This document shows, one piece after another, positions 19,855-64,000 of a stretch of DNA of 64,000 nucleotides. Source of the DNA: an uncultured Geobacteraceae bacterium (GTDB taxonomy: Bacteria > Desulfobacterota > Desulfuromonadia > Geobacterales > Pseudopelobacteraceae); the NCBI GenBank assembly GCA_903876875.1, contig CAIRBT010000130.1:9431-73430 (forward strand). Reading direction: 5' to 3'. The stretch's first letter is position 1; the number at the start of each line of letters is the position of its first letter. The notes beneath the pieces were generated by a model that was not told the origin of the DNA, ran no database searches, and saw nothing but the letters and a program-made list of their open reading frames with translations. The translations under genes and the position numbers were made by a program.

Positions 19855-19940
19855 TAAAAAAATTATCGTGACAGAGGGATATTTACTCTGGTAAAACAAA
19901 AATGTGGTTCTTTGCTGGCATTACGTTAAAGAGAAGGGCA

Positions 19941-22930: not shown

Positions 22931-22953
22931 ACATAGATGAGGAGTTGTGTACC

Positions 22954-36478: not shown

Positions 36479-36558
36479 AAATTATTTGTATTATATTTGC
36501 AGTAGTATATTTATTTAAACCTGTTTAAAAGCATACACTTATGTTCTGGAGGAACTTA

Positions 36559-49060: not shown

Positions 49061-49588
49061 CTATTTCGCGTACCGCTCCTTTTCACTGTAGATACAGCCA
49101 CAGTACTGCTGGCGATACAGTCCCTGCTCCCGTGATAATTTGATTCCCTCCTGCCATCCTGGTCGAAAATCCTCGTAATAAAAGGTCACGCCCTGGTCTG
49201 CGCCAATCTGTTCACCCAAGCGGCGAATTTCCTCATGCTTCTGATATCTGCTGTAAAGGAGAGAGACGGTAAATGCGTCAAATCCTCCCGCTGCGGCCGT
49301 CTTTGCCGTGGCCGTCATGCGGGAAGCATAGCAGTAGCTGCAGCGCGTGGCGGGGTCGCCAGCCACGTTGGCAAGAAATCCTTCGAGATCGTAGTCGTCG
49401 TGCAGCACGAGGGGGAGCTGTTGTTGCTCCGCCATCTGAAGGGCGGCATCGCGGCGTTTGGCGTATTCCTGATAGGGGTGAATGTTGTGGTTATAGAAAA
49501 AGCCGGTAACCTCATGCCCCGCTTCCCGCAGCTTTTTGAGGGGAAACAGGGCACAGGGACCGCAACAGATGTGGAGCAGTAGTTTCAT
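49061..49588 (-). CDS. queH: Epoxyqueuosine reductase QueH (DUF208)
   Basis: LLLHICCGPCA N-terminus and C-terminal YRQQYCGC. Confidence 0.88.
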   Translation of the reverse strand: MKLLLHICCGPCALFPLKKLREAGHEVTGFFYNHNIHPYQEYAKRRDAALQMAEQQQLPLVLHDDYDLEGFLANVAGDPATRCSYCYASRMTATAKTAAAGGFDAFTVSLLYSRYQKHEEIRRLGEQIGADQGVTFYYEDFRPGWQEGIKLSREQGLYRQQYCGCIYSEKERYAK

Positions 49589-50794
49589 TTAGAGATTTCC
49601 CAGCAGATGTCCCATTTTTTCGCGTTTCGTTTCCAGATAATCTCGATTGGTGTCGGTCGGTTCGGACTCAATGGAAAGACGCTCAACAATGTCAATGCCG
49701 TACCCCTGGAGGCCGATGAGCTTTTTCGGATTATTGGTCAGCAGACGTACCTTGGTGATGCCCAGTGCCAATAATATCTGGGCACCGATGCCATAGTCAC
49801 GCAGATCGGCCTTGAAGCCCAGTTCAATATTCGCTTCCACCGTATCCCGACCACGATCCTGCAGTTCGTAGGCTCGCAGTTTATTGACCAGGCCGATGCC
49901 GCGCCCCTCCTGTCGCATATAGAGAATGACACCGCTCCCTTCGGCGGCAATCTGTTCCATGGCCGAATGGAGCTGGGCACCACAGTCACAGCGCTGGCTT
50001 CCCAGGACATCACCGGTCAGACATTCGGAGTGAACCCGCACCAGTACCGGTTGATCGTTGCGCAAATCACCCTTTACCAGTGCAATATGTTCCAGTTTGT
50101 CAATGTCATTTTCAAAGCCGATGGCTCGCCATTCACCACCAAAGGAAGAGGGGAGTCGTGCCTCGGCAACAGTGCGTACCAGACGTTCGTTTTTAAGGCG
50201 ATAGGCCACCAGATCGGCGATGGTGCAGATTTTAATGTTGTGCTCTTTGGCGAAGACCTTCAGTTCAGGCATACGGGCCATCGTACCGTCATCATTCATA
50301 ATCTCACAGATGACACCGGCCGGTTTCATACCGGCAAGCCGTGCCAGATCCACCGAACCTTCGGTCTGTCCCAGGCGCACCAACACTCCACCCCTCCGTG
50401 CTTTCAGGGGGAAAATGTGCCCCGGACTCACCAGGTCAGCAGCACTGGCACCGTCGGCCACCGCCGTGACTATGGTATGGGCGCGGTCGGCTGCTGAGAT
50501 ACCGGTAGTAACGCCATGTTTTGCCTCGATAGAGACGGTGAAGGCGGTCTCAAAGGGGGAGGTGTTGTCACGAACCATGGGACGCAGTCCCAAATCATCA
50601 CACTTCTCCGGCGTCAGGGTGAGGCAGATGAGTCCTCTGCCATATTTTGCCATAAAGTTGATGTTCTCCGGGGTAGCCGCTTCGGCGGCCAGGGTCAGAT
50701 CCCCCTCATTTTCGCGGTCTTCATCATCAACCAGAATAACCATTTTGCCCTGGCGAATGTCTTCAATAGCTTCTGCAATGGATGCAACGGACAT
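49589..50794 (-). CDS. ribBA: Bifunctional 3,4-dihydroxy-2-butanone-4-phosphate synthase / GTP cyclohydrolase II
   Basis: [11 protein letters not shown] (RibB) and [21 protein letters not shown] (RibA). Confidence 0.95.
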
Positions 50795-50821
50795 AAACGT
50801 TCCTTTCAGTGTGTGTGCGTG

Positions 50822-51463
50822 TCAGATAAATCCGTTTTCAGCGAGGGTCTTCATGGTAAGCCCCCCCTCCGGTTTCCAGGGGGCCGTCAACCGTTCCACA
50901 TACTTGCCGATAATATCGGTTTCGATATTAACCCGGTCTCCGATAGTCAGCTGTTTTAGCGTGGTATTGCCATAGGTGTGCGGAATTATATTGACGGTAA
51001 AGCTTTCCCGTGCAACCTCATTGACGGTCAGACTGATGCCGTCGATGGTTACCGAGCCCTTTTCCACCAGGTAGCGGCAGTGGTCGGGGGGGATAGTGAA
51101 CTGGAGTTGATGGTTACCGGAGCGGCTGTCACAGCGAGTAAGACGACCGGTGCAATCCACATGCCCCGCCACTATATGCCCGCCAAAACGATCACCCAGC
51201 CTGAGTGCCCGCTCCAGATTAACCGATGTGCCAGTTCCCATGGTACCGATGGTGGTACGGGTCAAGCTCTCCGGAGAGACATCAAAGGTTAAAGAGCGGC
51301 TACTGCGGGCGGTGACGGTTAAACAGGCACCATTGACGGCGACAGAATCGCCAAGGGCAATGTCTCCGGTCGGCAGTGCCGTGTCAACGGTGAGCAGTGC
51401 GGCCTCTCCACGGTGGAGTAAGGCTGTAACCCTGCCGGTGTCTTCAATTAATCCTGTAAACAT
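50822..51463 (-). CDS. ribE: Riboflavin synthase alpha chain
   Basis: The true start is [10 protein letters not shown] at M54 of the ORF. Duplicated barrel repeats ([13 protein letters not shown] / [12 protein letters not shown]). 16-nt overlap with the ribD stop. Confidence 0.93.
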
Positions 51464-52551
51464 CTGTTCTCCGGATATGCGGTGACCATGATATCGGTAC
51501 CGACACGGCGTGATTTCAGGGTAGAAAATGGTATGGCCTCGGCCATTGTGGTACTGCCGCTGATGCCGAACGGCGAAATACCATCGGCACCGACAACTTT
51601 TGGGGCGTAGAAAAAGACACATTCATTAATCAGCCCCCGCTTGAGTGCTTCACCTGCCAGACGACTGCCCCCCTCAAGGAGCAGAGATTGGATGCCGCGA
51701 GTGCCGAGCTTATCCCACAGATCACCAAGATCAACTTTTCCGTCACAGCTCTTGCAGACCACGAGTTCCATTCCCCGGGCAAGAAAGCGGGCTTGATGCT
51801 CCGGTGCCGATTCTGTCGTTGCTATCAGGGTGCCAGGAGCCAGGTCGGCCGACAGCAGGGCGGCATGTTCGGGGGTACGGAGGTGGCTATCCACCACAAT
51901 CCGCAATGGATCATTGCCGGTCACATGGCGCACTGTCAGACGGGGGTCATCGGCAATCACGGTGCCCACACCCACCATAATGGCCTTACAGGTGGCACGC
52001 AGCCGATGCACCAGAGTACGGGACGCTTCGCAGCTGATCCAGCGGGAGTCCCCCGTAGCTGAGGCAATTTTTCCGTCCAGAGACATAGCACATTTCATGA
52101 TGGTGTGGGGGCGACCGGTGGCCATAAACTTCATAAAAGCCCGATTCAACTCCTGGCATTTCTCTTCGAGAAGACCGACGACGGTTGTAATACCGGCCTG
52201 TTGCAAGGCATGAATACCGTTACCGTTCACCCGTGGGTTTGGATCACCGCTGCCAATAAACACCCGTGCAACCCCGGCTCGAAGTAATGCGTCACAGCAG
52301 GGAGGAGTCCGCCCGGTATGGCTGCACGGTTCCAGGGTAACATAGACATCGGCACCGGCAGCGTTACTGCCGGCCATGGCGAGAGCGTGTACCTCGGCGT
52401 GGTGTCCACCGGCCCGTTTATGCCACCCTTCACCTATAATCACACCCTCTTTGACGATGACACAGCCGACCGCCGGATTCGGATAGGTCGTACCGACACC
52501 CCGTCGAGCCAACGTGAGGGCACGCTTCATGTAGAGTTCATCTTGCGTCAT
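51448..52551 (-). CDS. ribD: Bifunctional riboflavin-biosynthesis deaminase/reductase
   Basis: HAEVHAL and PCSHTGRTPPC deaminase zinc motifs, plus a C-terminal reductase domain. Confidence 0.95.
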   Translation of the reverse strand: MTQDELYMKRALTLARRGVGTTYPNPAVGCVIVKEGVIIGEGWHKRAGGHHAEVHALAMAGSNAAGADVYVTLEPCSHTGRTPPCCDALLRAGVARVFIGSGDPNPRVNGNGIHALQQAGITTVVGLLEEKCQELNRAFMKFMATGRPHTIMKCAMSLDGKIASATGDSRWISCEASRTLVHRLRATCKAIMVGVGTVIADDPRLTVRHVTGNDPLRIVVDSHLRTPEHAALLSADLAPGTLIATTESAPEHQARFLARGMELVVCKSCDGKVDLGDLWDKLGTRGIQSLLLEGGSRLAGEALKRGLINECVFFYAPKVVGADGISPFGISGSTTMAEAIPFSTLKSRRVGTDIMVTAYPENRCLQD

Positions 52552-52556
52552 TATCG

Positions 52557-53009
52557 TTATCTCTTCAGCAGATCCTGCAGTTCCTGCATGAACTCACCGA
52601 TGTCACGGAACGAGCGATACACCGAGGCAAACCGTACATAGGCCACTTCATCCATGCCATGCAGCTCTTTCATAAGCCACTCACCAATGGCGGTGGTGGT
52701 TATTTCCTTATCGGTTGATTCCTGTAAGCCGGTTTCCAGCTTGTCCACCATATGCTCGATGGCTTCCACCGGAATGGGACGCTTTTCACAGGCTTTCTTG
52801 ATTCCGGATATGATTTTCATGCGGTCGAACGGTTCCCGGCGCCCATCTTTTTTACAGACCTGGGGGAGCATTTCCTCAATCCGTTCGTGAGTCGTGAAGC
52901 GTTTCGCACACTCTTCGCACTCCCGGCGACGACGAATCGCCGTCCCCCCCTTGTCGGGGCGTGAGTCGATTACCTTGCTGTCAGGATTGCCGCAGAAGGG
53001 ACATTTCAT
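52557..53009 (-). CDS. nrdR: Transcriptional repressor NrdR (zinc ribbon + ATP-cone)
   Basis: MKCPFCG...DSKVIDSRP...[12 protein letters not shown]-cone with AYVRFASVY. Confidence 0.95.
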
Positions 53010-53473
53010 AGGGTTTGCTCCGCCGGGGGCGGGGAAAACTGAATAACTTCAATGGCCGCTTCGGCAATCATTTCCCGTGCCAGTTCGTCGGTGTACCCCT
53101 CTCCATAAATCACGGTTTTGATACCGGCATTAATAATCATCTTGGTACAGATGATACAGGGCATGGTGGTGCAGTAGAGTGTGGCACCATTAATGGTGGT
53201 ACCATGTTTGGCGGCCTGAATTATGGCGTTCTGCTCGGCGTGGAGTCCACGACAGAGTTCATGGCGTTCTCCGGAAGGGACACCAAGCTTGGCACGCAGA
53301 CAGCCGGTCGCCTCGCAATGGGTGATGCCCGACGGCACACCGTTATAGCCGGTGGCGAGAATATTACGATCTTTCACCAGTAAGGCACCTACTTGGCGGC
53401 GCATACATGATGAACGGGTCGCCACCAGGTGGGTGATGTCCATGAAATATTGATCCCAGGATGGTCGTGGCAT
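53006..53473 (-). CDS. dCMP deaminase (ComEB/CMP-dCMP deaminase zinc-binding family)
   Basis: HAEQNAI and PCIICTKMI motifs. ATGA overlap with nrdR. Confidence 0.88.
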
Positions 53474-53655: not shown

Positions 53656-55359
53656 GTGTCCCAGCAGCAACCTCAAAGTCGGATTCTGCTCGTTGATGAT
53701 GAAGAAGGAATCCGTTTTACCTTTGGTACCTTATTACGAAAAGAGGGGTATCTTGTCGAGTCTGCCGCAGATGTGGGGGAAGCCAGGAGGCTGCTCGGAA
53801 ATAATCGTTTTGACCTTGCTTTTCTTGATATTACTCTTGCCGGTGAGAATGGCCTTGACTTGTTGCGGGAGATTAAGGCCTTGGATAGTGATGTTCAGGT
53901 GGTTATGTTTACCGGTGCCCCCAAGCTGGAATCTGCCGTTGAAGCGGTAAGGCTTGGTGCCTTCGATTACATCACCAAGCCGGTTCGCTATGAAACGTTG
54001 ATTGCCGTAACCCGCCACGCCTTGAGTAGCAAGTATTTCAATGACGAGCGGGAACGCAACCGGGCCAATCTCGATGCTATTTTTCGTACGGTTTCCGACA
54101 GTATTCTCATGGTTGACCAGAACGGTTGTCTTGTCCAGTTTAACAGCACGGCTGAGAGGATATGCGGCTATCGGTCAGATCTATTGGGAACCAAAGCGGC
54201 GGCTATCAAGCTTGGTTGTGGTGGAGAATGTACTTCTCTGTTGTTGGAAGTCTTGGAAGGAAAAAGCTCTCGTGAGTTGAAGAGGATTGAGTGCCGACCA
54301 TCTGTGGGAAAAACCAGGGTAGTGACGGTGACAGCAACACCGGTTGTTGAAAACGATGGCGATATCAGCGGTGCCGTGGCGGTTATTCGTGATGAAACGG
54401 CTCTGGTGGAACTGGAGCGCACCCAGCATCTCCGGGGACAATTCCATGCCATTGTGGGGGCTTCAGCTGTGATGCAGCGGGTCTACTCAATGATTGAATC
54501 TCTTGCCAACCTGCCAACAACGGTGCTGATTTTTGGAGAGAGCGGTACCGGAAAAGAGTTAGTAGCTGCTGCGCTCCATGAAAGCGGCAGTCGCTCAAAG
54601 GGGCCGTTTGTCAAGGTAAACTGTTCGGCTCTTTCGGAACATCTGCTGGAAAGCGAGCTGTTTGGCCATGTACGGGGAGCGTTCACCGGTGCCATTGCCG
54701 ATAAAGTCGGTCGCTTCCAAAAAGCCCACGGCGGTACGCTCTTTCTCGATGAAATTGGTGATATTTCCCCTGCCATCCAGATGCGGCTGTTACGGGTTTT
54801 GCAGGAAAGTGAATTTGAGCGGGTCGGGGAATCCCATTCCATTAAAGTAAATGTGCGTATTATTGCTGCCTCAAACCAGAATCTGGCCGAGCGGGTGGCT
54901 CAGGGACTTTTTCGACAGGATCTCTATTACCGGCTCAATGTGGTGCGTCTCGATCTGCCGCCGCTGAGGAGTCGCCGCGACGATCTTGAATTACTGGTTG
55001 CCCATTTTCTGGTAAAATTCAATAACCTTTTTTCCAAAGAGGTTACGGCCGTTTCCCATGACGTAATGGCACTTTTCACGCACTATGAATGGCCAGGCAA
55101 TATTCGTGAGCTTGAGCACGCCATTGAACATGCCTGTATTCTCAGTAAATCTTCTATTCTTTCCATTGAAGACCTTCCTCAGGACCTCCGGGAAACGGTA
55201 CCAGTGCTGGCGGTTTCCGATTCCGTTGTTACTGCTGCGGATACCACTAAACTTACAATTGAAGAAGCTCTGGCGGCTGCGGGGGGGAATAAGGCACGGG
55301 CTGCAAAAATGCTTGGTATCAGTCGCATGACCCTCTATCGTCAGTTAGAAACTAAATAG
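53656..55359 (+). CDS. Sigma-54-dependent response regulator (REC-PAS-AAA+-Fis HTH; NtrC family)
   Basis: AAGAGG lies 8 nt before GTG 53656. ILLVDDEEG...LDITL REC domain, a PAS block, GESGTGKE, GAFTGA, ESELFGH and C-terminal AAKMLGISRMTLYRQL. Confidence 0.92.
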   Translation: MSQQQPQSRILLVDDEEGIRFTFGTLLRKEGYLVESAADVGEARRLLGNNRFDLAFLDITLAGENGLDLLREIKALDSDVQVVMFTGAPKLESAVEAVRLGAFDYITKPVRYETLIAVTRHALSSKYFNDERERNRANLDAIFRTVSDSILMVDQNGCLVQFNSTAERICGYRSDLLGTKAAAIKLGCGGECTSLLLEVLEGKSSRELKRIECRPSVGKTRVVTVTATPVVENDGDISGAVAVIRDETALVELERTQHLRGQFHAIVGASAVMQRVYSMIESLANLPTTVLIFGESGTGKELVAAALHESGSRSKGPFVKVNCSALSEHLLESELFGHVRGAFTGAIADKVGRFQKAHGGTLFLDEIGDISPAIQMRLLRVLQESEFERVGESHSIKVNVRIIAASNQNLAERVAQGLFRQDLYYRLNVVRLDLPPLRSRRDDLELLVAHFLVKFNNLFSKEVTAVSHDVMALFTHYEWPGNIRELEHAIEHACILSKSSILSIEDLPQDLRETVPVLAVSDSVVTAADTTKLTIEEALAAAGGNKARAAKMLGISRMTLYRQLETK

Positions 55360-55394
55360 TGTCACATGTTACACGCTGTGTGTCACATGTGACA
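55360..55394. promoter_or_regulatory. Two phased palindromes TGTCACATGT(T/G)ACA (candidate enhancer-binding sites)
   Basis: TGTCACATGTTACA at 55360-55373 and the perfect palindrome TGTCACATGTGACA at 55381-55394, 21 bp apart. A third half-site, TGTTACAT, lies at 55412-55419. They sit about 95-120 bp upstream of the -24/-12 element. Confidence 0.5.
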
Positions 55395-55480
55395 TGTTTA
55401 GAAACAACAAATGTTACATTTCATATTTCCACATAATAATTAATACGTCGTAATAAATTTATAAACCACTAATAAATATA

Positions 55481-55497
55481 AGGCACCGGCACGGCAA
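55481..55497 (+). promoter_or_regulatory. Candidate sigma-54 (-24/-12) promoter
   Basis: aGGCACcggcacgGCAa. The GG (55482-83) and GC (55494-95) have the canonical 12-nt offset of TGGCAC-N5-TTGCW. The upstream region is AT-rich. Confidence 0.5.
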
Positions 55498-55534
55498 CCT
55501 CTTCTGTGGGGGATTGGCATGGAAGATGTATAGA

Positions 55535-55915
55535 ATGAGGTGCTTCATACGCTCCCGTGAAGGATATTTGTTGATCATTATGAAAAACAGAGACAAAAAA
55601 TACCGGCATCATCCTACGGAATCCCCACATTTTCATTCCTCAATGGTTGCACTGGCCGTTGATATGGCTGCGGATTTTAATAATATTCTGACTACCGTCA
55701 TGGGTGCCTGTACGTTAATTAAAAAAGATGATCCGGAAAATGCTGAACTTTTACAGTGTATTGCTCTTATTAATGCCTCCGCTGAACATGCGGCTCTCCT
55801 GACCAATCAGTTGGCTCACGTGACCTTTCAGAAATCAGTGTCTCTGTCGGATGCTCGCCGTGTTCAGGGTACGGTGAAATCAAATCAAATACATAAGGAA
55901 CTCTGTGATGAGTGA
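55535..55915 (+). CDS. DHp (HisKA)-like stand-alone protein lacking the phospho-acceptor histidine
   Basis: VALAVDMAADFNNILTTVMGACTLI aligns with the common H-box G(G)IAHDFNNLLT.I.GY.EL, but Ala (codon 55670-55672) replaces His. There is no HATPase domain. The start is uncertain (55526, 55535 or 55580). Confidence 0.6.
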   Translation: MRCFIRSREGYLLIIMKNRDKKYRHHPTESPHFHSSMVALAVDMAADFNNILTTVMGACTLIKKDDPENAELLQCIALINASAEHAALLTNQLAHVTFQKSVSLSDARRVQGTVKSNQIHKELCDE

Positions 55916-57122
55916 GTGTGGAATTATTACAGACCAGTCAATACCCCATGTTCTTGTTGTCGATGATGAACCTGAAATCCGTCATATGATTTCGCTCTGC
56001 CTTAAAAAGAGTAATTTTAATGTTGCAACAGCAGAAAGTGTGGCAGAAGCCTGCAATATGCTGGTGCTTGAGCATTTCGACGCCATCCTGAGCGATGTGA
56101 TGATGCCGGGTGAGGATGGCATTGCGTTTTTAGCACGGGTTCATGAACTTTGGCCGGACATTCCGGTTATCTTGATGACCGGCCATGCCCAATTGCAAAT
56201 GGCGGCGAACGCTATTAAGAATGGTGCCTTTGATTTTATCTGCAAACCTTTTGATTTTGAACTGATGCGCAAAATTATTCTTCGTGCGGTTAATTACTCG
56301 AAATTGCAAAGGATTGAGAAAAATTATCGTATTGAACTGGAAGAAACCGTGTTACGGCGTACCAGTGAGCTTAAAGAATCAATGTCTGAGCTGGACTACG
56401 CGCGGGCCGCACTTCAGCAGGCCGCCACGGCAAAGAGTACCTTCATGTCGACTGTTTCCCACGAAATGCGTACACCAATGAATGGTGTTCTCGGTGCTTT
56501 GGAACTTATTGCCGATGAAGGGGTGACCGGTATGGCCGCTGAATACCTGGCCATGGCCCGTGAATCGGCTGAAAGCATGATTGCACTCATTAACCAGATG
56601 CTTTCCTTTGCCACTCAGAGCAGTGCCGGTGAAGGGAATTGTAATCATGATCTTATTGACCCCCGCTCACTGTTGCACTCCCTTGTTGAAGGGATGCACT
56701 CGCAGTTTACCCGAAAAGGGGTAACGCTGGACTTTAGAGCTGGCGATGATGTACCGCGAAAAATATGGACTGATCATGAAAAGTTTAGTCGCTTATTTAC
56801 CATTTTGCTTGGTAATGCACTCAAGTTTACTCACCATGGTGCGGTGCAGTGTGAGTTGTCACACCATCAAACCGATGGTGGTGACCTACTCAACTGTGCC
56901 ATCACCGACAGTGGTATCGGCATTCCTGAAGGTATGTTGGAGCAGATCTTTGAACCATTTGTACAGGGAGACAGTTCTCTATCCCGCTCCTATGAGGGGG
57001 TTGGCCTGGGGTTGTCTATTGCTCGCCAGAATGCCGCATTACTCAATGGTCAGATTTGGGCGGAGCATGTTCCCTCCGGTGGCAGCCGTTTTATTGTTGT
57101 CATCAAAATCAGTACACCTTGA
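55905..57122 (+). CDS. Response-regulator/histidine-kinase fusion (REC-HisKA-HATPase)
   Basis: HVLVVDDEPEIR...LSDVMMPGEDG REC domain, H-box STVSHEMRTPMNGVLG, and DSGIGIP / GVGLGLSI G-boxes. 11-nt overlap with the upstream gene. Confidence 0.9.
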   Translation: MMSECGIITDQSIPHVLVVDDEPEIRHMISLCLKKSNFNVATAESVAEACNMLVLEHFDAILSDVMMPGEDGIAFLARVHELWPDIPVILMTGHAQLQMAANAIKNGAFDFICKPFDFELMRKIILRAVNYSKLQRIEKNYRIELEETVLRRTSELKESMSELDYARAALQQAATAKSTFMSTVSHEMRTPMNGVLGALELIADEGVTGMAAEYLAMARESAESMIALINQMLSFATQSSAGEGNCNHDLIDPRSLLHSLVEGMHSQFTRKGVTLDFRAGDDVPRKIWTDHEKFSRLFTILLGNALKFTHHGAVQCELSHHQTDGGDLLNCAITDSGIGIPEGMLEQIFEPFVQGDSSLSRSYEGVGLGLSIARQNAALLNGQIWAEHVPSGGSRFIVVIKISTP

Positions 57123-57147
57123 AATAAGCTTCTAAGGAGAATGAACC

Positions 57148-57546
57148 GTGAAATACCTGATTGCCGAAGATCACCTGATGTCCCGTCGCATACTCAAGGA
57201 GCTGCTTGCATCGCAGGGGGACTGTGATATTGCCGTAAATGGTCAGGAAGCGATTGATTCCTTCGTTCTCGCCCACGAGTCAAAACGCCCGTACGACGTT
57301 ATTTTTATGGATATCATGATGCCGATTGTTGATGGCATGGAGTCGTTACGCAGTATCAGGGCTATTGAGCGAGAAATGGAGATTCCACCCCATCTGATGG
57401 TTAAAGTGATTATGACGACCGCCCTTGATGACCCCCATACCGTGATCACCTCTTTTAATAAATGTGAAGCGGATGCCTTTATCGTTAAACCCCTGAGCAG
57501 ATCCAAGCTACTTAAGGAAATGCGGGCACTCAAACTGATTCAGTAA
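57148..57546 (+). CDS. Single-domain response regulator
   Basis: AAGGAG ribosome-binding site plus GTG start. YLIAEDHLMSRR..., FMDIMMPIVDG, VIMTTA. Confidence 0.88.
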   Translation: MKYLIAEDHLMSRRILKELLASQGDCDIAVNGQEAIDSFVLAHESKRPYDVIFMDIMMPIVDGMESLRSIRAIEREMEIPPHLMVKVIMTTALDDPHTVITSFNKCEADAFIVKPLSRSKLLKEMRALKLIQ

Positions 57547-57558
57547 GGGAAGTCCTCA

Positions 57559-59397
57559 ATGACATTATACCCCACATACCGCGACACATCTCTTTCGGGG
57601 GGCATAGAATTAACTGCATTACGGAGTTGGCCCGAGGTGCTGTTACCGGCAATTGCCACCTTGAAACTCATGGCAGGTACCACTGAAGATGAGTTTCTGC
57701 ATATTGGCTCCCGCATTCAATTACTGTACCATCGCTCAACTGACGTGTCGGGAATGTCCGGTCAGTTGGTCGAAGTGGTGTCCGGGATGACTGTTCAATC
57801 CCTGACGGATCGACTGCAGCGGATGATGGCCGATATGCAGGCTTATCTTTCTGAGGCTCGTGTACGCAGTAACGATAGCTGCCGTATTCTGGAAGAGGTA
57901 CAGCAGTTGCTTGAGAATCTATCGGCACCGATGGAAGGGTTCCAGAAAATTAACAAATCCCTCAGGATGTTGAGTATCTCAACAAAAATTGAGAGTGCCC
58001 GCCTGGGCGAACTTGGCAGCGGTTTTGTTAATCTGGCCATGGATGTAGAGAAGTTGTCACATCAGGTTAATGAAAAATCAGCGGCGATTTTGGCCCATCG
58101 CCTTCGCCTTTCAAATATGATCGGTGAAAATCTTGTGGGGGTTCACTCCTCTGAAGCGACACAGGATGCCACCGTTACTGCGTCATTGGCGAGTACCGCT
58201 TCCAGTTTGCAGGAACTGTTAACGGTTAATGAACGGTGTAACCGCTTTGGTGAAACGGTGGCGACTATTTCATCTGAAGTAGCTGGTGATATCAGCGAAA
58301 TGGTTGCCTCCATGCAGATGCACGACATGACCCGTCAGCAGGTTGAACATATTATCGAAGCACTGGAGCAGTTGCACGGTACTCTTAAAAACATTGATAT
58401 TGCCACTGTTAGTGAGGAGAAGGGGCGTGCCGTAACCGTGGAGTCCGGGGATGTGTGTGAATTACAGGAGGCGCAACTCCGTTTTTCTTCGACCGAATTA
58501 TATACGGCCGTTACCACGATAATCGGCAATTTACAGGATATCGATCAGAAACAACAGGCCATGGGGCACGAGGTTCATCTGGTTACCGGTGCCTCCGATT
58601 CATCAGGTGGCTCCTTTGTCGATGTCATGAGCGAGGGGATGACTTCTATTACCTCTGCTCTGACCTCCTGTGCCTGGGCCGACCGCAATATGTCCGATAC
58701 CATGGGGAGAGTTGCTGGTACCATCGGTGAAATAGCCTCTTTTGTCACCGATATTGAAATGATTGGTACTGAAATTGATCTCATTGCCCTTAATGCCCAG
58801 ATCAAGGCGGCACATACCGGAACCGAAGGAGCCGCTCTGGGGGTGCTTGCCGAGGCGATCAAGCGGCTCTCTGACGAAGCGGTGCGTCAGACCAGTTCGG
58901 TCGCGGGAACTTTAAAAAATATTTATACCGCCACGGAACATATGACCTGTAGCAGTGCCGATGAGGACCATCATCTCAGTAATCGGGTCATGGTCTTACA
59001 GGGGGATGTGGCTACCGTATTGCGGGAATTAGCGACTATGAATGGTGCAATTTCATCAATTCTCACCGGTTTGGGGCAAGAAATTGCCACCGTTACCGGT
59101 GATGTTGAGCAGCTGATAGCCGGGATTGATGTCCACTCACGAACCCGAACCATGGCCGAGGGGGTACTGGACGACCTTGCGCAAATTGTCTCTCAGGCTC
59201 GCAGCATTGTTCCCGCCAGTACGGAATTTAAGGAAAATCTCCGTTTTATGGAGCAACGTTACACCATGGAAAGTGAACGCCATATCCATGAATCCATAGC
59301 CCGTAAACGGAATGGACAGAGTCCGGTTGTCGTGAGGCAGACAGTTACTGCGGCAGTGGATGAATCAGAATTTGGTGATAATGTAGATTTATTTTAG
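57559..59397 (+). CDS. Soluble MCP-signalling-domain-like protein with two hairpin-tip-like segments
   Basis: No TM helix. aa 133-169 (KSLRMLSISTKIESARLGELGSGFVNLAMDVEKLSHQ) and aa 405-440 (EIDLIALNAQIKAAHTGTEGAALGVLAEAIKRLSDE) both align with the canonical MCP tip [35 protein letters not shown]. Confidence 0.7.
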   Translation: MTLYPTYRDTSLSGGIELTALRSWPEVLLPAIATLKLMAGTTEDEFLHIGSRIQLLYHRSTDVSGMSGQLVEVVSGMTVQSLTDRLQRMMADMQAYLSEARVRSNDSCRILEEVQQLLENLSAPMEGFQKINKSLRMLSISTKIESARLGELGSGFVNLAMDVEKLSHQVNEKSAAILAHRLRLSNMIGENLVGVHSSEATQDATVTASLASTASSLQELLTVNERCNRFGETVATISSEVAGDISEMVASMQMHDMTRQQVEHIIEALEQLHGTLKNIDIATVSEEKGRAVTVESGDVCELQEAQLRFSSTELYTAVTTIIGNLQDIDQKQQAMGHEVHLVTGASDSSGGSFVDVMSEGMTSITSALTSCAWADRNMSDTMGRVAGTIGEIASFVTDIEMIGTEIDLIALNAQIKAAHTGTEGAALGVLAEAIKRLSDEAVRQTSSVAGTLKNIYTATEHMTCSSADEDHHLSNRVMVLQGDVATVLRELATMNGAISSILTGLGQEIATVTGDVEQLIAGIDVHSRTRTMAEGVLDDLAQIVSQARSIVPASTEFKENLRFMEQRYTMESERHIHESIARKRNGQSPVVVRQTVTAAVDESEFGDNVDLF

Positions 59398-59409
59398 AAG
59401 GAGTCGCAG

Positions 59410-59757
59410 ATGTCTTTCAACAGCGTGGTCGATAAAAATGGTGCCATTATCATAGCCACCGGTGATCGTCTGACCATTGAAGTCGTTGGTGAGTTTGCTC
59501 AAATACTTACCGAATCACTGGGGGCTGCCAAAGAGGTGTATCTTGAATTTGCTCCTGAATTGGAAATTGACATAACCGGCGTGCAGCTTATCTGTGCAGC
59601 CTGTAAAACTGCCAGTCGGGAGGGTTCGGTCTTTTCCTTTCGGGGGCTGCTCCCGTCTGCATTGGTAGGTATGGTAGAAAGAAGCGGCATTCAGCGCAAT
59701 GCACCGTGTAAACATAATAATAATTCAACCTGTATCTGGTTTGGAGGTACCGAATAA
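59410..59757 (+). CDS. STAS-domain protein (anti-sigma-antagonist fold)
   Basis: 115 aa. Pattern ...IIIATGDRLTIEVVGEFAQIL...EVYLEFAPELEIDITGVQLICAA... is typical of SpoIIAA/STAS. GAAGGAG ribosome-binding site. Confidence 0.7.
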   Translation: MSFNSVVDKNGAIIIATGDRLTIEVVGEFAQILTESLGAAKEVYLEFAPELEIDITGVQLICAACKTASREGSVFSFRGLLPSALVGMVERSGIQRNAPCKHNNNSTCIWFGGTE

Positions 59758-60122
59758 TGGCAAAACTGATCATGACGGCTGACGACTCGGCCAGTGTACG
59801 GCAGATGGTGGCATTTACCCTGAAACAGAATGGCTATGAGGTTATTGAGGCGGTTGATGGTAAAGATGCACTCACCAAGTTGAGCAGCAAGAAAGTTGAT
59901 ATGTTACTCACCGACTTGAATATGCCACATCTTGACGGTATCGGACTGATTAAGGGGGTGCGCAGCAGTGCATTGAATAAATTTGTGCCGATTATCATGC
60001 TTACCACCGAGTCGAATGATGGCAAAAAGAGTGAAGGTAAAGCGGCTGGTGCCACCGGTTGGATTGTCAAACCTTTCAAGCCGGAACAGTTGATAGCCGT
60101 CGTTAAAAAAATTCTGGGGTAG
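59757..60122 (+). CDS. cheY: CheY-like response regulator
   Basis: ADDSASVRQMV..., LLTDLNMPHLDG, IIMLTTE and GATGWIVKPF. TAATG overlap with the STAS gene. Confidence 0.9.
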   Translation: MAKLIMTADDSASVRQMVAFTLKQNGYEVIEAVDGKDALTKLSSKKVDMLLTDLNMPHLDGIGLIKGVRSSALNKFVPIIMLTTESNDGKKSEGKAAGATGWIVKPFKPEQLIAVVKKILG

Positions 60123-60176
60123 TCACTACGGGGTGTTCGTATCCAGAAGTACTCTGGGTACGCTGAGGTTAGAGCC

Positions 60177-62300
60177 ATGATGGAGCAAACAATTATTACC
60201 TACCGGGATGAGGCCGGTGAACTGCTGGTTGAGTTGGAGGCCTCACTTCTTGAGCTGGAAGAGACTCCCGATGATATGGAGCTTATCAATCGGGTCTTCC
60301 GTGCCATGCATACCATCAAAGGGTCCGGGGCAATGTTTGGTTTTGATGAAATAGCCCTCTTCACCCATGAGGTGGAGACTGTTTTCGATCTGGTACGCAA
60401 TGGTAAGATGACGGTCACCAAGCGTCTGCTCGACCTGACGCTTCAGTCACGGGATCACATCTGCTACCTTCTGAGTCTGCCGGCGGATGAAGCCGTAGAC
60501 CGTACTGAAGGTGATGAAATTATCGCCGGTCTTCGTCAGTTGGTTCCTGCTCTCAAGCCTTCACCCGGAAGTTCTGCAGCTGCGCCTTCCCCTCAGTTAC
60601 CTCGGCTCTCCGGTGAGGATCTGGTAGAGGAAAAAACCTGGCGCATCCGTTTTCACCCAGATCCGAACATTCTCATGTGCGGTACCAATCCCATATCATT
60701 AATTAATGAACTGCGTGATCTGGGGATCGCTCATGTGGTGGCACAGATAGATGAAGTACCTCTTTTGGGGCAGATTGTCAGTGAACAATGTTACCTCTAT
60801 TGGGACATCATACTGACCACATCTCGTGGTGAAGATGCCATCAAGGATGTGTTCATTTTTGTGGAAGACGATTGTGAACTCAAGATAGATCTGATTGATA
60901 GTAGTGGCCTGATTGACCGTCATGACGGGTATAAAAAACTCGGTGATATTCTGGTAGAACGGGGTGATCTCTCTCCGGTTGAGATGCAGAAAGTACTGCA
61001 ATTGCAGAAACGCTTTGGCGAGTTACTGGTGGAACAGGGGGTGGTCTCTCCGGAAAAAGTTCAGTCGGCACTGGTGGAACAGCAGCATGTCAAGAATGTT
61101 CGACGAGAACGGAGCGAAGCACCCCAACAGGAGTCGGCCGCCAGTATTCGTGTTCCGGCCGAGCGGCTTGATCAGTTGATCAACCTGGTAGGTGAAATGG
61201 TTACGGTACAGGCCCACCTGACCCAGGTATCCATGGCAGGGGGTGATCCGGTCTTTATTGCCATCTCGGAAGAGGTGGAACGGCTCACCAATGAGCTTCG
61301 CGATACGGCACTCAATATTCGTATGCTCCCCATCGGCAGTACCTTCAGTAAGTTCAAACGTCTGGTGCGTGATCTCTCCGGTGAGTTGGGTAAGGATGTT
61401 GTCATGGAAACCTTCGGTGCCGAGACCGAGCTTGATAAGACGGTTATTGAAAAGCTCAACGACCCATTGGTTCATATCATTCGTAACAGCATCGATCATG
61501 GTATTGAGACCCCGGCAGCTCGCAATGCCGCAGGGAAAACCTCTACCGGTACGGTTTTCCTCGGTGCAGAGCATTCGGGTGACTCGGTACTTGTTACCAT
61601 ACGTGACGATGGTGGTGGTCTTGACCGCGATGCCATTCGTGACAAGGCGGTGGAGCGCGGCCTGATAGCAGCCACTGCGGAACTGACAGATCGGGAAATA
61701 TTTGCCCAGATCTTCTCCCCCGGTTTTTCCACCGCCAGCAAAGTCACCAGTGTGTCTGGTCGTGGTGTGGGAATGGATGTGGTTAAGCGGGGCATTGATG
61801 GCTTGCGGGGCACCATCAATGTGGAAAGTGTGCGGGGGAAGGGGACGACTATTACCCTCAAGATCCCGTTAACACTGGCTATCATCGAAAGCCTGCTGGT
61901 GAAAATCGGATCCGACCACTTTGTGCTCCCTCTGGCCATGATTGAAGAGTGTATTGAGCTGTCACGGAGTGATGTGGCGGCGGCCCATGGCCGCAACATG
62001 GCGGTGGTGCGCGGTACATTGACGCCTTACATATCTCTCCGTGAGCAGTTTGCCATTACCGGCAATCGGCCCGACATTGAGCAGATAGTTATTGCCTCGG
62101 TACAGGGGGTACGCATCGGTTTTGTGGTTGACTTTGTGGTTGGTGAACACCAAACCGTCATTAAGCCTCTGGGGCGGCTTTACCAGGATGTCCAGGGTAT
62201 TTCCGGTGCCACCATCCTTGGTGACGGTACGGTGGCTCTGATTCTCGATCCGGTTATTCTCTCCCGGGAAGCAGTTCTTATAGAAGCACAGCACCTCTAA
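60177..62300 (+). CDS. cheA: CheA histidine kinase (Hpt - MshEN-like insert - dimerisation - HATPase - CheW-like)
   Basis: Hpt RAMHTIKGSGAMFGF, H-kinase dimerisation RVPAERLDQLINLVGE, N/G boxes (HIIRNSIDHGIE, DDGGGLD, GRGVGMDVV), and a C-terminal CheW-like domain (ISGATILGDGTVALILD). Confidence 0.93.
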   Translation: MMEQTIITYRDEAGELLVELEASLLELEETPDDMELINRVFRAMHTIKGSGAMFGFDEIALFTHEVETVFDLVRNGKMTVTKRLLDLTLQSRDHICYLLSLPADEAVDRTEGDEIIAGLRQLVPALKPSPGSSAAAPSPQLPRLSGEDLVEEKTWRIRFHPDPNILMCGTNPISLINELRDLGIAHVVAQIDEVPLLGQIVSEQCYLYWDIILTTSRGEDAIKDVFIFVEDDCELKIDLIDSSGLIDRHDGYKKLGDILVERGDLSPVEMQKVLQLQKRFGELLVEQGVVSPEKVQSALVEQQHVKNVRRERSEAPQQESAASIRVPAERLDQLINLVGEMVTVQAHLTQVSMAGGDPVFIAISEEVERLTNELRDTALNIRMLPIGSTFSKFKRLVRDLSGELGKDVVMETFGAETELDKTVIEKLNDPLVHIIRNSIDHGIETPAARNAAGKTSTGTVFLGAEHSGDSVLVTIRDDGGGLDRDAIRDKAVERGLIAATAELTDREIFAQIFSPGFSTASKVTSVSGRGVGMDVVKRGIDGLRGTINVESVRGKGTTITLKIPLTLAIIESLLVKIGSDHFVLPLAMIEECIELSRSDVAAAHGRNMAVVRGTLTPYISLREQFAITGNRPDIEQIVIASVQGVRIGFVVDFVVGEHQTVIKPLGRLYQDVQGISGATILGDGTVALILDPVILSREAVLIEAQHL

Positions 62301-62309
62301 GGAGCCACG

Positions 62310-62906
62310 ATGGCCTTTACCTTCTTTTTTCGTGATTTACCGGTTCTTGAGTATGCTGTTGAACGCACCATTGCTCTTTCCATGGGGAGGATGCGTATTA
62401 AGGTGTGGGATGCCGGTTGTGCCCTTGGTCAGGAACCTTACACACTTGCCATTCTCTTTGCGGAGCGTCTGGGAGCCACCTTTAATAATCTCTACCTTGA
62501 CGCCACTGACTATGACAGTGAAAACAACTTTGGTGATGTGGTCAAGCTGGCAACCTATAAATATGAAGAGTTGCAGCGCATACCGGTGGATATTTTTAAG
62601 AAATATTTTGATGCACAGGGTAATGACTTATATCAAGTTACTGACAGGGTTCGGAATCGGGTTTTTTTCCAGTACCATAATCTTCTGTCACTAAAGCCGC
62701 ACGGCTCCGATTATGCACTTGTGGTCTGCAAAAACGTTCTGCTCCATTTCCAGTATGCCGAACGGATTGAAGTAATCAAAATGTACCATCAGTCACTCTG
62801 CCCCGGTGGCTATCTGGCCATGGAGAACACCCAGAAAATGCCGGTTGAAATTGAGCATCTGTTTGAACAGGTGGTTCCGGATGCCCAGTTGTACCGGAAA
62901 AAATGA
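62310..62906 (+). CDS. cheR: CheR-type SAM-dependent methyltransferase, catalytic domain only
   Basis: TFFFRD...RIKVWDAGCALGQEPYTLAI...VVCKNVLLHF. The usual N-terminal helical domain is absent (198 aa). Confidence 0.8.
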   Translation: MAFTFFFRDLPVLEYAVERTIALSMGRMRIKVWDAGCALGQEPYTLAILFAERLGATFNNLYLDATDYDSENNFGDVVKLATYKYEELQRIPVDIFKKYFDAQGNDLYQVTDRVRNRVFFQYHNLLSLKPHGSDYALVVCKNVLLHFQYAERIEVIKMYHQSLCPGGYLAMENTQKMPVEIEHLFEQVVPDAQLYRKK

Positions 62907-63499
62907 GAGTCAGAGAACTGGAGCAATCCCACGAGATTTACACCTGCCGCTCATATCTGATTCTTGGCGAGTGGAACCAGTTGGGTGATGTAAATACGCT
63001 GGTTGACCCGGGTACCGATGGAGCGGTGCTGGCTCAGATAGAAAAACTTTCTACCGGCTGCGGTAAGGTTCCGGTGTCCCAGATTCTGCTGACCCATAAC
63101 CACTTTGACCATGGCGGGGGCATCGGACAGATCAAGAAGATGTACGGCTGCCGGGTGTACGCCTGGTGTGACGGCAAGGATGTTGATGAGTTGCTGTATG
63201 ACGGGCAATTTCTTAAAGCAGGTGACGACCAGTTACAGGTGCTTCATACGCCGGGACACTCGTCTGATTCGATCTGTCTGTATAATTTGAAACAGAAGCT
63301 GCTTTTTTCCGGTGACACCCAGTTACGGGTTCGCTCCTCCGACGGGGTGTTCACACCGGAATATGTGGAATCATTACGTCGCCTGGCCCACCTGGATATA
63401 GAGATAGTGTACTCAGGTCACGATGAACCGGTAACCGGAGGTGTTCAGGAAATGCTCTATAATACGTTGGCTCAGGTACGACGAAGTAAAATATTCTAA
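62903..63499 (+). CDS. MBL-fold metallo-hydrolase
   Basis: LLTHNHFDHGGG (HxHxDH) and HTPGHS. ATGA overlap with the cheR-like gene. Confidence 0.85.
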   Translation: MRVRELEQSHEIYTCRSYLILGEWNQLGDVNTLVDPGTDGAVLAQIEKLSTGCGKVPVSQILLTHNHFDHGGGIGQIKKMYGCRVYAWCDGKDVDELLYDGQFLKAGDDQLQVLHTPGHSSDSICLYNLKQKLLFSGDTQLRVRSSDGVFTPEYVESLRRLAHLDIEIVYSGHDEPVTGGVQEMLYNTLAQVRRSKIF

Positions 63500-63638
63500 T
63501 CCGAGTTGTGGTGAGTAATTAAAGAAAACTATTAAAAGGGGGTGTCAAGGGGTCTTGCTGTTTTGTTAACGTTTATTTGCAGAATATGGGGTTGTGGTAA
63601 CAGTTTATGAACGAATTTATTTCTCGGAGGTAACAGGT

Positions 63639-64000
63639 ATGCAATGGTTTTATAACATGAAGCTGAGAGCAAAACTTATGACCGGATTTGTTCTGGTCGC
63701 CCTTGTGGCAGCGGTGCTGGGGGTCATCGGTATTAAGGAAATCAGGACAATAGATGAAGCTGATACCCGACTCTATGAGAAAATGACCATGCCGCTCAGT
63801 CAGGTTGGTGATATGAGTACTTCATTTCAGAGGATGCGCTGTAATTTTCTTGAAATTTACACAACGGATTCAGTTGAAAAACAGAATGATTTTTTAAAGC
63901 GTATAGCAGAGCGTGATAAGGAAATGGATGAACTCTTTGCTAAATATGAGAAAACCATCCTTACCGAGGATGGGAGAAAAGTCTTTAAGGAACTCCAGGT
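63639..64000 (+). CDS. Methyl-accepting chemotaxis protein, N-terminal part (4HB_MCP-type sensor), truncated by the window end
   Basis: GGAGG lies 9 nt before ATG 63639. The frame is open to position 64000. MQWFYNMKLRAKLMTGFVLVALVAAVLGVIGI... is the typical 4-helix-bundle MCP N-terminus plus TM1. It is absent from the ORF track, which appears to list only ORFs with an in-window stop. Confidence 0.75.
   Translation, partial: MQWFYNMKLRAKLMTGFVLVALVAAVLGVIGIKEIRTIDEADTRLYEKMTMPLSQVGDMSTSFQRMRCNFLEIYTTDSVEKQNDFLKRIAERDKEMDELFAKYEKTILTEDGRKVFKELQ

Follow-up and report, generated by a model that had tools for sequence, protein, structure and literature searches.

A putative F8-type chemosensory cluster with a two-component module in front in an uncultured Geobacteraceae bacterium

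The DNA analysed here (the window, a stretch of 64,000 nucleotides (nt) of contig CAIRBT010000130.1 from an uncultured Geobacteraceae bacterium) carries at its 3' end, from position 53656 onwards, a chemosensory (che) gene cluster with a two-component signalling module in front of it. Eleven co-directional open reading frames (ORFs), g1 to g11, were found on the plus strand (Table 1), with the same coordinates, overlaps and gaps as in a preliminary description of this DNA. Domain scans with Pfam, which that description had proposed, and with NCBIfam upheld nearly all of its domain calls, including the dimerisation and histidine phosphotransfer (DHp) protein without its His, the soluble methyl-accepting chemotaxis protein (MCP) with a double tip, the MshE-type motif in CheA, the CheR without its N-terminal domain and the small metallo-beta-lactamase (MBL)-fold protein. 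Intergenic gaps are at most 54 nt from g2 to g10, with 12 nt between g4 and g5, no terminator-like site was found in any gap, and scans for sigma-70 promoters and terminators remained at background level. This is a real and tight signalling operon, in which the che core is already catalogued and a few add-ons are unusual. The reading that we favour, with moderate confidence, is that the window holds the 5' two-thirds of a Geobacteraceae F8-type (34H) chemosensory cluster with a two-component module in front, working in the way proposed below. For comparison, 22 related loci (identified by L numbers) were used, and all eleven window proteins were mapped onto each.

Table 1. Features of the chemosensory locus, with positions in the window.
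Feature	Position	Strand	Description	Basis
g1	53656..55359	+	NtrC-type enhancer-binding protein, REC-PAS-Sigma54_activat-HTH_8 (Fis-type HTH)	Pfam, NCBIfam
Candidate activator-binding sites	55360..55418	.	Two palindromes and a half-site	Direct reading
Candidate sigma-54 promoter	55481..55497	+	aGGCACcggcacgGCAa; GG at 55482-3, GC at 55494-5	
g2	55580..55915	+	His-less DHp-only protein; ORF open from 55514	HisKA 20-21 bits
g3	55905..57122	+	REC-HisKA-HATPase kinase	Pfam
g4	57148..57546	+	Single-domain response regulator (REC)	Pfam
g5	57559..59397	+	Soluble tandem-duplicated McpA/TlpC-like receptor, 612 aa	
g6	59410..59757	+	STAS-domain protein	Pfam STAS_2 28.1 bits, slightly under cut-off
g7	59757..60122	+	CheY	Pfam, NCBIfam
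g8	60177..62300	+	CheA: P1, P2-like domain, MshEN_N-type tandem motif, P3-P4-P5	
g9	62310..62906	+	CheR methyltransferase core without N-terminal helical domain	Pfam CheR, no CheR_N
g10	62903..63499	+	Small glyoxalase-II/YcbL-like MBL-fold protein, 198 aa	
g11	63639..64000	+	5' part (first 120 residues) of a four-helix-bundle (4HB)-sensor MCP with 4HB_MCP_1 domain, ends at window edge	

The g8 product contains the Hpt, dimerisation, HATPase and CheW-like P5 domains of CheA, and its best NCBIfam match is the E. coli-type CheA model (440.8 bits). The CheW-like domain previously ascribed to this CheA as its own is indeed present, but it is the ordinary P5 domain. Between P2 and P3 lies a tandem motif, KLGDILVERGDLSPVEMQKVLQLQ-K-RFGELLVEQGVVSPEKVQSALVEQ (60936-61082), and residues 254-302 match the NCBIfam model NF053729 ('cyclic di-GMP-binding domain, MshE-related') at 41.0 bits against a cut-off of 38, with 49 CheA residues aligned to 53 positions of the model; the link of the operon to cyclic di-GMP (c-di-GMP) via CheA, raised earlier as a possibility, thus finds a match in a curated model. 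Like MshEN and MshEN_N (Wang et al. 2016), this CheA has tandem 24-residue motifs of the RLGxxLLxxGLLxxxxLxxxLxxQ type, and unlike them it has Lys in place of the first Arg; the same region also matches the GSPII region of PilF. The tandem motif is kept in all CheA orthologues covering the region (20/20), NF053729 scores 39-53 bits in the orthologues of Deferribacteraceae and Desulfobacterium, and the CheA of Agrobacterium, a negative control, is without the motif. The P2-like domain together with the motif region was recovered in 649 clusters (50% identity) at E<=1e-10; most of the full-length ones are CheA-sized (~700 aa), many of the matches are fragments, and spirochaete CheAs are included. 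The MshEN_N-CheA architecture has been on record since 2016 (Wang et al., PMC5013675 Suppl. Table 4), and no experimental follow-up was found in the searched literature, which is incomplete. As a separate observation, the window also encodes a T2SSE-family ATPase of pilus or secretion type with a full MshEN domain (22945-24882, plus strand), which is the second MshE-type c-di-GMP module in the window; two large ORFs without a Pfam match (19902-21209 and 21315-22859) precede it.

The g5 product has two MCPsignal stretches and no transmembrane (TM) segment or sensor domain. Its N- and C-terminal halves are homologous and align tip to tip (hhalign 96.7%, E 3.6e-10), each half separately matches solved MCP signalling domains, and both tips (tip 1 at 57961-58059, tip 2 at 58774-58872) are degenerate. 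The AlphaFold model is all-helical (pLDDT 79), with MCP hairpins as the best Foldseek matches, for example, 3G67 (TM-score 0.70). Three strongly conserved blocks mark the protein: a Q-x2-D-x3-Q-x2-E-H block, SMQMHDMTRQQVEH (residues 251-264, 58309-58350), which is invariant across the family and which copy 1 retains and copy 2 has lost; YTMESERHIH at 59260-59289, a family block of the form YTMxSERxxH that has degenerated to YTMDGER or YATDEQR among alpha- and gamma-proteobacterial relatives; and an acidic C-terminus ending in NVDLF (59380-59394), or in NVELF or NIELF in relatives. The C-terminal motifs EVELF, DIELF and EIDLF of McpA-like receptors have been reported as 'strikingly conserved' in F7 clusters, with their role called unclear (Ortega 2020 Suppl. 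Table 12, PMC7184735). Both this C-terminal pattern and the position beside cheY and cheA are present in g5, while the membrane anchor and single hairpin of McpA-like receptors are replaced by a duplicated hairpin without a TM segment. Moreover, residues 370-579 align with the MCP1 proteins of Pseudomonas and Aeromonas (hhalign 98%, E 2e-13), the YTMxSER/YATxEQR block included, and this alignment to gamma-proteobacterial receptors identifies g5, as judged from its sequence, as a soluble protein in which the cytoplasmic module of McpA-like receptors is duplicated in tandem.

The plasmid-encoded MCP1 proteins of Aeromonas and Pseudomonas are 404-412 aa long, have a TM region and contain the stretches LQFQDRVSQ and SYATDEQRxxHH; their terminal D(V/I)TFF departs from [DEN][VIL][ED]LF in its third and fourth residues. 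In the gamma-proteobacterial McpA-like receptors at L028 (7029-8243) and L029 (6910-8148), these stretches are the counterparts of the three g5 blocks and make up a conserved C-terminal module that spans proteobacterial classes. In alpha-proteobacteria, g5 homologues of ~576 aa close (STAS-like)-CheY-CheA-CheW-MCP-CheW-CheR-CheB clusters and adjoin a ParA gene. They share size and cluster-end position with TlpC of R. sphaeroides, a 580-aa atypical MCP without HAMP and methylation regions that belongs to a cytoplasmic double-layer array and is encoded at the end of CheOp2; this link between g5 and TlpC rests on size, position and description, not on the TlpC sequence, and the lack of the MshEN_N motif in the Agrobacterium CheA is a point of difference. 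In Agrobacterium (L025), genes for a REC-HD-GYP protein (c-di-GMP phosphodiesterase-type) and ParA flank the cluster (19030-19731, 10744-11445). A Pseudoalteromonas match (H6) was set aside as an unrelated orphan MCP.

The invariant block of g5 might also resemble the active site of CheZ. Pfam CheZ is matched by 16 of 20 g5-family segments (best E 6e-6), the next family by only 4, and D256 and Q260 of g5 align with the catalytic D143 and Q147 of E. coli CheZ (hhalign, E 0.011; query PDB 1KMI chain Z). At the C-termini of the two proteins (GDNVDLF in g5, DDLLDSLGF in CheZ), acidic residues precede a hydrophobic one and a final Phe. Full-length g5-family proteins score just 10-20 bits against the Pfam CheZ cut-off of 30.7, the alpha-proteobacterial g5 homologues have no CheZ match, and searching PDB with a profile of the g5 motif region yielded only coiled-coil noise, without recovering CheZ. 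These similarities weakly suggest a CheZ-like site, which is a lead and not a finding; experiments on such a site in McpA-like receptors were not found in the searched literature, which is incomplete. A more far-reaching proposal combines a CheA gated by c-di-GMP through its MshEN_N insert with McpA/TlpC-like proteins that act as array-embedded, CheZ-type phosphatases of CheY~P; in that case, the Q-x2-D-x3-Q-x2-E-H block would be the active site and the acidic (V/I)(E/D)LF tail the tether for CheY. We consider this combination unlikely. If it were true, the phosphatase would account for the missing CheZ, CheX and CheC in these clusters, as well as for the co-evolution of McpA-like receptors with them.

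In the STAS protein g6, the position of the phospho-Ser of SpoIIAA is occupied by Ile, and by I, L or M among g6 and its orthologues. No PP2C phosphatase or anti-sigma kinase gene was found in the window region. STAS partner switching, which had been brought forward as established knowledge for such proteins, is not supported here, given the hydrophobic residue at the Ser position and the lack of nearby genes for a partner kinase or phosphatase. The g6 orthologues of L001-L021, in delta-proteobacterial and Deferribacterales clusters, share a C-x2-(C/H)...C-x8-C pattern with four conserved Cys positions, which could form a metal- or redox-sensing site, and the Aeromonas and Pseudomonas clusters encode STAS proteins that retain MDSAG and have no Cys pattern. 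The CheY encoded by g7 is 65-91% identical across 20 loci and 53-56% identical to the CheYs of the Aeromonas and Pseudomonas clusters.

The CheR core encoded by g9 consists of the S-adenosylmethionine-binding (SAM) domain only and aligns to about residues 75-250 of solved CheRs (80-237 of 5FTW), with the motifs DAGCALGQEPY and CKNVLLHF intact; an N-terminal domain cannot lie upstream because CheA ends at 62300. The following gene, g10, overlaps g9 by 4 nt and is translationally coupled to it, and its product is a Lactamase_B protein of YcbL/GloB type with an HxHxDH motif (HNHFDH, 63095-63112). In the window as in L001 and L010, the gene pair immediately precedes that of the polyHAMP MCP, while the CheR core occurs without the MBL in L011 and the MBL without the CheR core in L002. 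Conceivably, the pair acts as a private couple that methylates and demethylates the polyHAMP receptor or g5. Chemotaxis in T. denticola has a CheR-like structural domain and an MBL-fold protein, ODP, as accessories, which provides a precedent for both kinds; g10, with its classical HxHxDH motif, is much closer to glyoxalase II than to ODP. An ODP-like reading of g10 was likewise found weak, with 28.2 bits for Pfam ODP (cut-off 27.2) against 83 bits for a generic MBL model, apart from the HxHxDH motif.

Upstream of these genes, the NtrC-type regulator g1 starts with GTG, preceded by an AGAGG ribosome-binding site, and has a GAFTGA loop at 54676-54693; its orthologues accompany the cluster, upstream of it, in L001, L002 and L004. 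The 14-bp palindrome TGTCACATGTTACA (55360-55373) directly follows the g1 stop codon, and a second one of the same length, TGTCACATGTGACA (55381-55394), has its centre 21 bp away. The half-site ATGTTACA (55411-55418) lies 3' of the two and is followed by an AT-rich stretch, and in L001 the sequence TGTAACATGTTACA occurs twice at the same place, 22 bp apart. The candidate promoter lies ~100 nt 3' of the palindromes, and g2 begins ~85 nt further on. Its -24/-12 match, GGCAC-N7-GCA (55482-55496), occurs four times in the window against 2.6 expected, so that the pattern is at chance frequency and takes its weight only from its position. The -24 GGCAC is kept in L001, L002 and L004 at a similar distance. 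Of the sigma-54 control previously proposed, the NtrC-type activator with palindromes and a GGCAC -24 element ahead of the unit is supported in four genomes, and the promoter itself stays a candidate, as weighed below.

The small g2 protein has only a weak HisKA match (20 bits in Pfam) and an H-box reading AADFNNIL (55667-55690), where relatives read AHDFNN; judging from the L001 homologue, its start is probably ATG 55580 rather than 55514. At the same position in L003, L004 and L008 stands a full PAS-HisKA-HATPase kinase with the H-box AHDFNN, and the comparison identifies g2 as the remnant of such a kinase. The kinase g3 stands beside g4 and g5 in L001 and L003-L005, and g4 is 59-94% identical in these loci.

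CheA relatives from named sources at 72-89% identity are mostly metagenome-assembled genomes (MAGs) of Geobacteraceae, Pelobacteraceae and Desulfuromonadaceae, along with the isolate Pelotalea chapellei. The closest locus, L001, also from an uncultured Geobacteraceae bacterium, has all 11 genes in the same order, at 78-95% identity except for g2 (63%), and at 83-94% when g6 is set aside as well. The gene-neighbourhood comparison proposed in the preliminary description showed the g5-STAS-CheY-CheA block at 20 loci, in Desulfuromonadales, Desulfobacterales, Desulfatiglandales and Deferribacterales, and g3-g4 ahead of g5 in L001 and L003-L005; the adjacency of REC-kinase, REC protein and g5 is thus kept in five genomes, and the view that the two-component and che genes are one tight unit holds.

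The g11 orthologue in L001 is a 1064-aa 4HB-polyHAMP (HAMP_2) receptor of class 34H ending in EFEKF, and some of the cluster MCPs in L001, L004, L010 and L011 bear Aer2-type HAMP_N3, McpB_HAMP_2 and PAS modules. Past this MCP, L001 encodes CheW (174 aa), a full CheR (CheR_N and CheR), CheB, a HisKA-HATPase kinase and CheD, and L004 has the order CheA-MCP-CheW-CheR-(161 aa)-CheB. No CheW, CheB, CheD or flagellar gene was found within the 64,000-nt window, as had been stated before, but CheW, CheR, CheB and CheD lie downstream in L001. Because L001 carries them there, the lack of CheW, CheB and CheD in the window is most likely an artefact of the window edge. The additional kinase of L001 has 308 aa and lies between cheB and cheD (19255-20181), so the full cluster probably has three kinases. 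In a Geobacteraceae MAG, FapA is encoded between cheA and cheW (L010, 12209-13780).

The che core can be assigned, from its sequence, to a known cluster type, which is F8 by receptor class and F7-like in layout. Compared with the 36H receptors Tar and Gmet1078, the cluster MCPs of L001, L004, L010 and L011 lack exactly 7+7 residues, placed evenly on either side of the tip, and their C-termini read EFEKF, EFETF, NFEKF or DFVKY; the call of class 34H comes from these relatives' MCPs, since the window MCP covers only the first 120 residues. As receptor class 34H has been assigned to F8 systems (PMC11253619), it points to F8 for this cluster. The core order, taken from relatives for the part 3' of the MCP, is McpA-like receptor, STAS, CheY, CheA, pentapeptide MCP, CheW, CheR and CheD/CheB, and the window plus the L001 downstream genes match F8/F7 gene content and order. 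For F7 at stage 1, the order STAS, cheY, cheA, cheW, aer2, cheR, cheD, cheB, mcpA-like has been reported (Ortega 2020, PMC7184735), and the Shewanella che1 locus has the same parts together with the CrsR/CrsA RpoS switch. On plasmids of Pseudomonas sp. HR96 and Aeromonas sp. BC14, the annotated order is MCP1-CheY-STAS-CheA-MCP(..DF[VT]RF)-CheW-CheR-CheD-CheB. The window CheA is 40-41% identical to these plasmid CheAs and 40-47% identical to CheAs of alpha- and gamma-proteobacterial clusters, against 34.6% to the CheA of enteric Proteus mirabilis, the enteric CheA being taken as F7 (Ortega 2020, PMC7184735).

With the F8 clusters (P. syringae pv. tomato cluster II and the HR96 and BC14 plasmids), the locus shares a nearly identical order, 34H receptors, an MCP ending in xFxxF and a CheA with a P2-like domain and an MshEN_N-like tandem motif. 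It differs from them in its soluble and duplicated first receptor, its Ser-less STAS protein with conserved Cys, the CheR-core/MBL pair after CheA, the NtrC, DHp-only, REC-kinase and REC proteins upstream, and the 4HB sensor and polyHAMP region of its main MCP. With the ancestral (stage 1/2) F7 clusters, namely V. cholerae cluster III, P. aeruginosa Che2 and S. oneidensis Che1, it has in common the STAS gene ahead of cheY-cheA, an Aer2-like polyHAMP main receptor, CheR, CheD and CheB, and an McpA-like receptor with a [DE][VIL][ED]LF C-terminus, while the F7 receptors are 36H and these are 34H. The F8-type cluster is, in layout, a sister to the ancestral F7 clusters.

Within Geobacter, the 'Type 2 E. 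coli-like' clusters of Tran et al. 2008 (G. sulfurreducens 3 and 4, G. metallireducens 3 and G. uraniireducens 4) have been described with 34H EFEKF receptors, CheD and many non-che ORFs. Their MCPs average over 3 in G. metallireducens and G. uraniireducens and over 7 in G. sulfurreducens, the former two species each have one aberrant MCP with 14-15% identity to Tar, and two CheY loci are present in all. The EFEKF-type 34H MCPs, CheD, two CheY loci and many non-che ORFs agree with the cluster studied here and fit g4/g7 and g5; orthology to the named clusters is drawn from descriptions, not sequences, and the extra genes there were described without a domain-level account. Their 'Type 1 E. coli-like' class (36H, DWKEF) was rejected, as the cluster MCPs are 34H with EFEKF and thus of Type 2. 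Another che cluster with an NtrC-like regulator is Che3-CrdA of M. xanthus, in which Che3 is coupled to an NtrC-like activator; this likeness does not imply that g1 is an output of CheA here.

The preliminary description had proposed instead an undescribed pathway of the 'alternative cellular function' (ACF) type, serving something other than motility without CheW, CheB and CheD and tied to both a phosphorelay and STAS partner switching. The window, which lacks CheW, CheB, CheD and flagellar genes and whose operon includes a STAS gene besides additional REC and kinase genes, is in line with this, and the F7/F8 relatives of Vibrio and Shewanella are believed to act in stress responses and not in motility. 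Yet the syntenic L001 has CheW, CheR, CheB and CheD directly downstream, the STAS protein has lost its Ser with no PP2C phosphatase or anti-sigma kinase gene nearby, and gene order and receptor class fit F7/F8; no positive evidence for ACF was found, and such a pathway is very improbable. That the combination of parts could not be matched to a described pathway no longer holds either, by the refutation test which that description itself had set, because the core maps to a known class (the ancestral F7, F8 and Geobacter 'Type 2 E. coli-like' clusters). A narrower alternative concerns g5, which might be a non-catalytic structural spacer bridging two CheA/CheW baseplates of a cytoplasmic double-layer array. 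DosM of V. cholerae cluster I (F9), which is likewise soluble and consists only of two signalling domains, stabilises F9 cytoplasmic arrays, and g5 resembles it in having two homologous signalling hairpins and no TM segment or sensor domain; the ~576-aa alpha-proteobacterial homologues beside ParA genes also match TlpC, a member of a cytoplasmic array, in size and gene position. Unlike the DosM system, the relatives' clusters have no triple CheW, the F9 signature (the L001 CheW of 174 aa is single-domain), their gene content is not F9, and g5 bears McpA-type motifs; moreover, its degenerate tips may weaken CheA/CheW binding, and a spacer role leaves the invariant Q-x2-D-x3-Q-x2-E-H block unexplained. 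Membership in F9 with DosM was rejected because CheW in L001, L004, L010, L011 and L002 is single-domain, with 158-204 aa and no CheW3, and the DosM-like spacer itself appears possible but doubtful.

For the front part of the locus, g2 might be a decaying, functionless pseudogene fragment of a PAS histidine kinase, as it is truncated in comparison with the full kinases of L003, L004 and L008, has lost its H-box His (Ala in the window, Glu in L001) and shows the lowest identity to L001 in the operon (63%). Nevertheless, its frame is open in both genomes, its 3' end overlaps the start of g3 as coupled genes do, and its dN/dS against L001 is 0.17, close to the 0.16 of the STAS gene, although this estimate is rough with synonymous sites near saturation; the value suggests that the protein is still under constraint, and a pseudogene is rather improbable. 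It is similarly not very probable that g1-g4 and the che genes from g5 on are mere neighbours with separate promoters and no functional link. Many loci with g5-STAS-CheY-CheA (L006-L019) have no g1-g4, g1 adjoins MBL-CheW-MCP-g5 in L002 with g2-g4 missing, and the g4-g5 gaps are ~90-105 nt in L003-L005. In the window, however, this gap is only 12 nt with no terminator-like site in the gaps, the order g3-g4-g5 is held in five genomes at 50-85% identity, and the tie of g1 to the cluster outlasts rearrangement, as seen in L002.

In the favoured reading of an F8-type cluster with a two-component module in front, the membrane 4HB-polyHAMP receptor and soluble g5 would assemble with CheW and CheA. 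CheY and CheB are the phosphoacceptors of CheA in Che pathways, and here too CheA would phosphorylate both, with adaptation by CheR, CheB and CheD. The kinase may be modulated by c-di-GMP through the MshE-type tandem motif between P2 and P3, and g5 may serve the array as a scaffold and perhaps also be a CheZ-like sink for CheY~P. The g1 regulator would bind the TGT(C/A)ACATGT(T/G)ACA palindromes and fire the sigma-54 promoter, giving a single transcript from g2 on, while the REC-kinase g3, the REC protein g4 and His-less g2 might form a side relay into expression or into signalling at the level of CheY.

Several points weigh against this reading. The two halves of the CheA motif are separated by a single residue (Lys; LQLQ-K-RFGE) and not by five as in MshE, and the CheAs of Aeromonas and Pseudomonas reach only 32-34 bits with NF053729, under its cut-off; given this shorter spacer, c-di-GMP binding by a CheA of this type is plausible but unproven. 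The F8 class rests on receptor class and gene order, not on CheA/CheB/CheR phylogeny, and the continuation of the cluster past base 64000 is known from its relative L001, not from the window contig. Relatives do not retain the -12 GC of the promoter, and the pattern alone is at chance level. In addition, g1 and g2-g4 are missing at many loci retaining the che core, and their coupling to it would therefore be lineage-specific. Finally, the phosphotransfer routes are deduced from the genes present and not from direct evidence, and the final output may be motility or lifestyle/stress.

The surroundings of the cluster are of a more general kind. On its 5' side, the minus strand carries a dCMP/cytidine deaminase-family gene, nrdR, ribD, ribBA and queH (49061-53473), which are housekeeping genes, and further 5' lie genes for acetate kinase, truD and a SpoU methylase; with these housekeeping genes on the opposite strand upstream, the cluster is outside any obvious island, and its GC content is unremarkable. 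The plus strand encodes at 36541-44406 a protein of 2621 aa that has DUF4347, Cadherin_4 and Big_9 repeats and is probably a giant adhesin of the cell surface, and a 1280-aa hybrid kinase (dCache-HAMP-PAS-PAS-HisKA-HATPase-REC-REC) is encoded at 2825-6667 on the minus strand.

The lineage-specific parts of the locus are the duplicated soluble McpA-like g5, the Ser-less Cys-rich STAS protein, the CheR-core/MBL pair, and the NtrC/sigma-54/REC-kinase front with its relic DHp protein. F8 relatives affect swimming and biofilm in P. syringae (PMC11253619), and F7 relatives have been linked to stress responses. Such 'second' F7/F8 systems, among them P. syringae cluster II, V. cholerae cluster III, Shewanella Che1 and P. 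aeruginosa Che2, are widespread. The locus shows that their architecture is of old standing and has been conserved in Desulfuromonadales, Desulfobacterales and Deferribacterales, with related insert-bearing CheAs in spirochaetes. Two ideas that can be tested follow from the locus, namely that CheA binds c-di-GMP and that McpA/TlpC-like proteins have a CheZ-like site; if both failed, it would be an ordinary accessory che cluster. As a natural variant tied to an NtrC/sigma-54 and REC-kinase module, it could reveal regulatory logic in Geobacter-type metal reducers.

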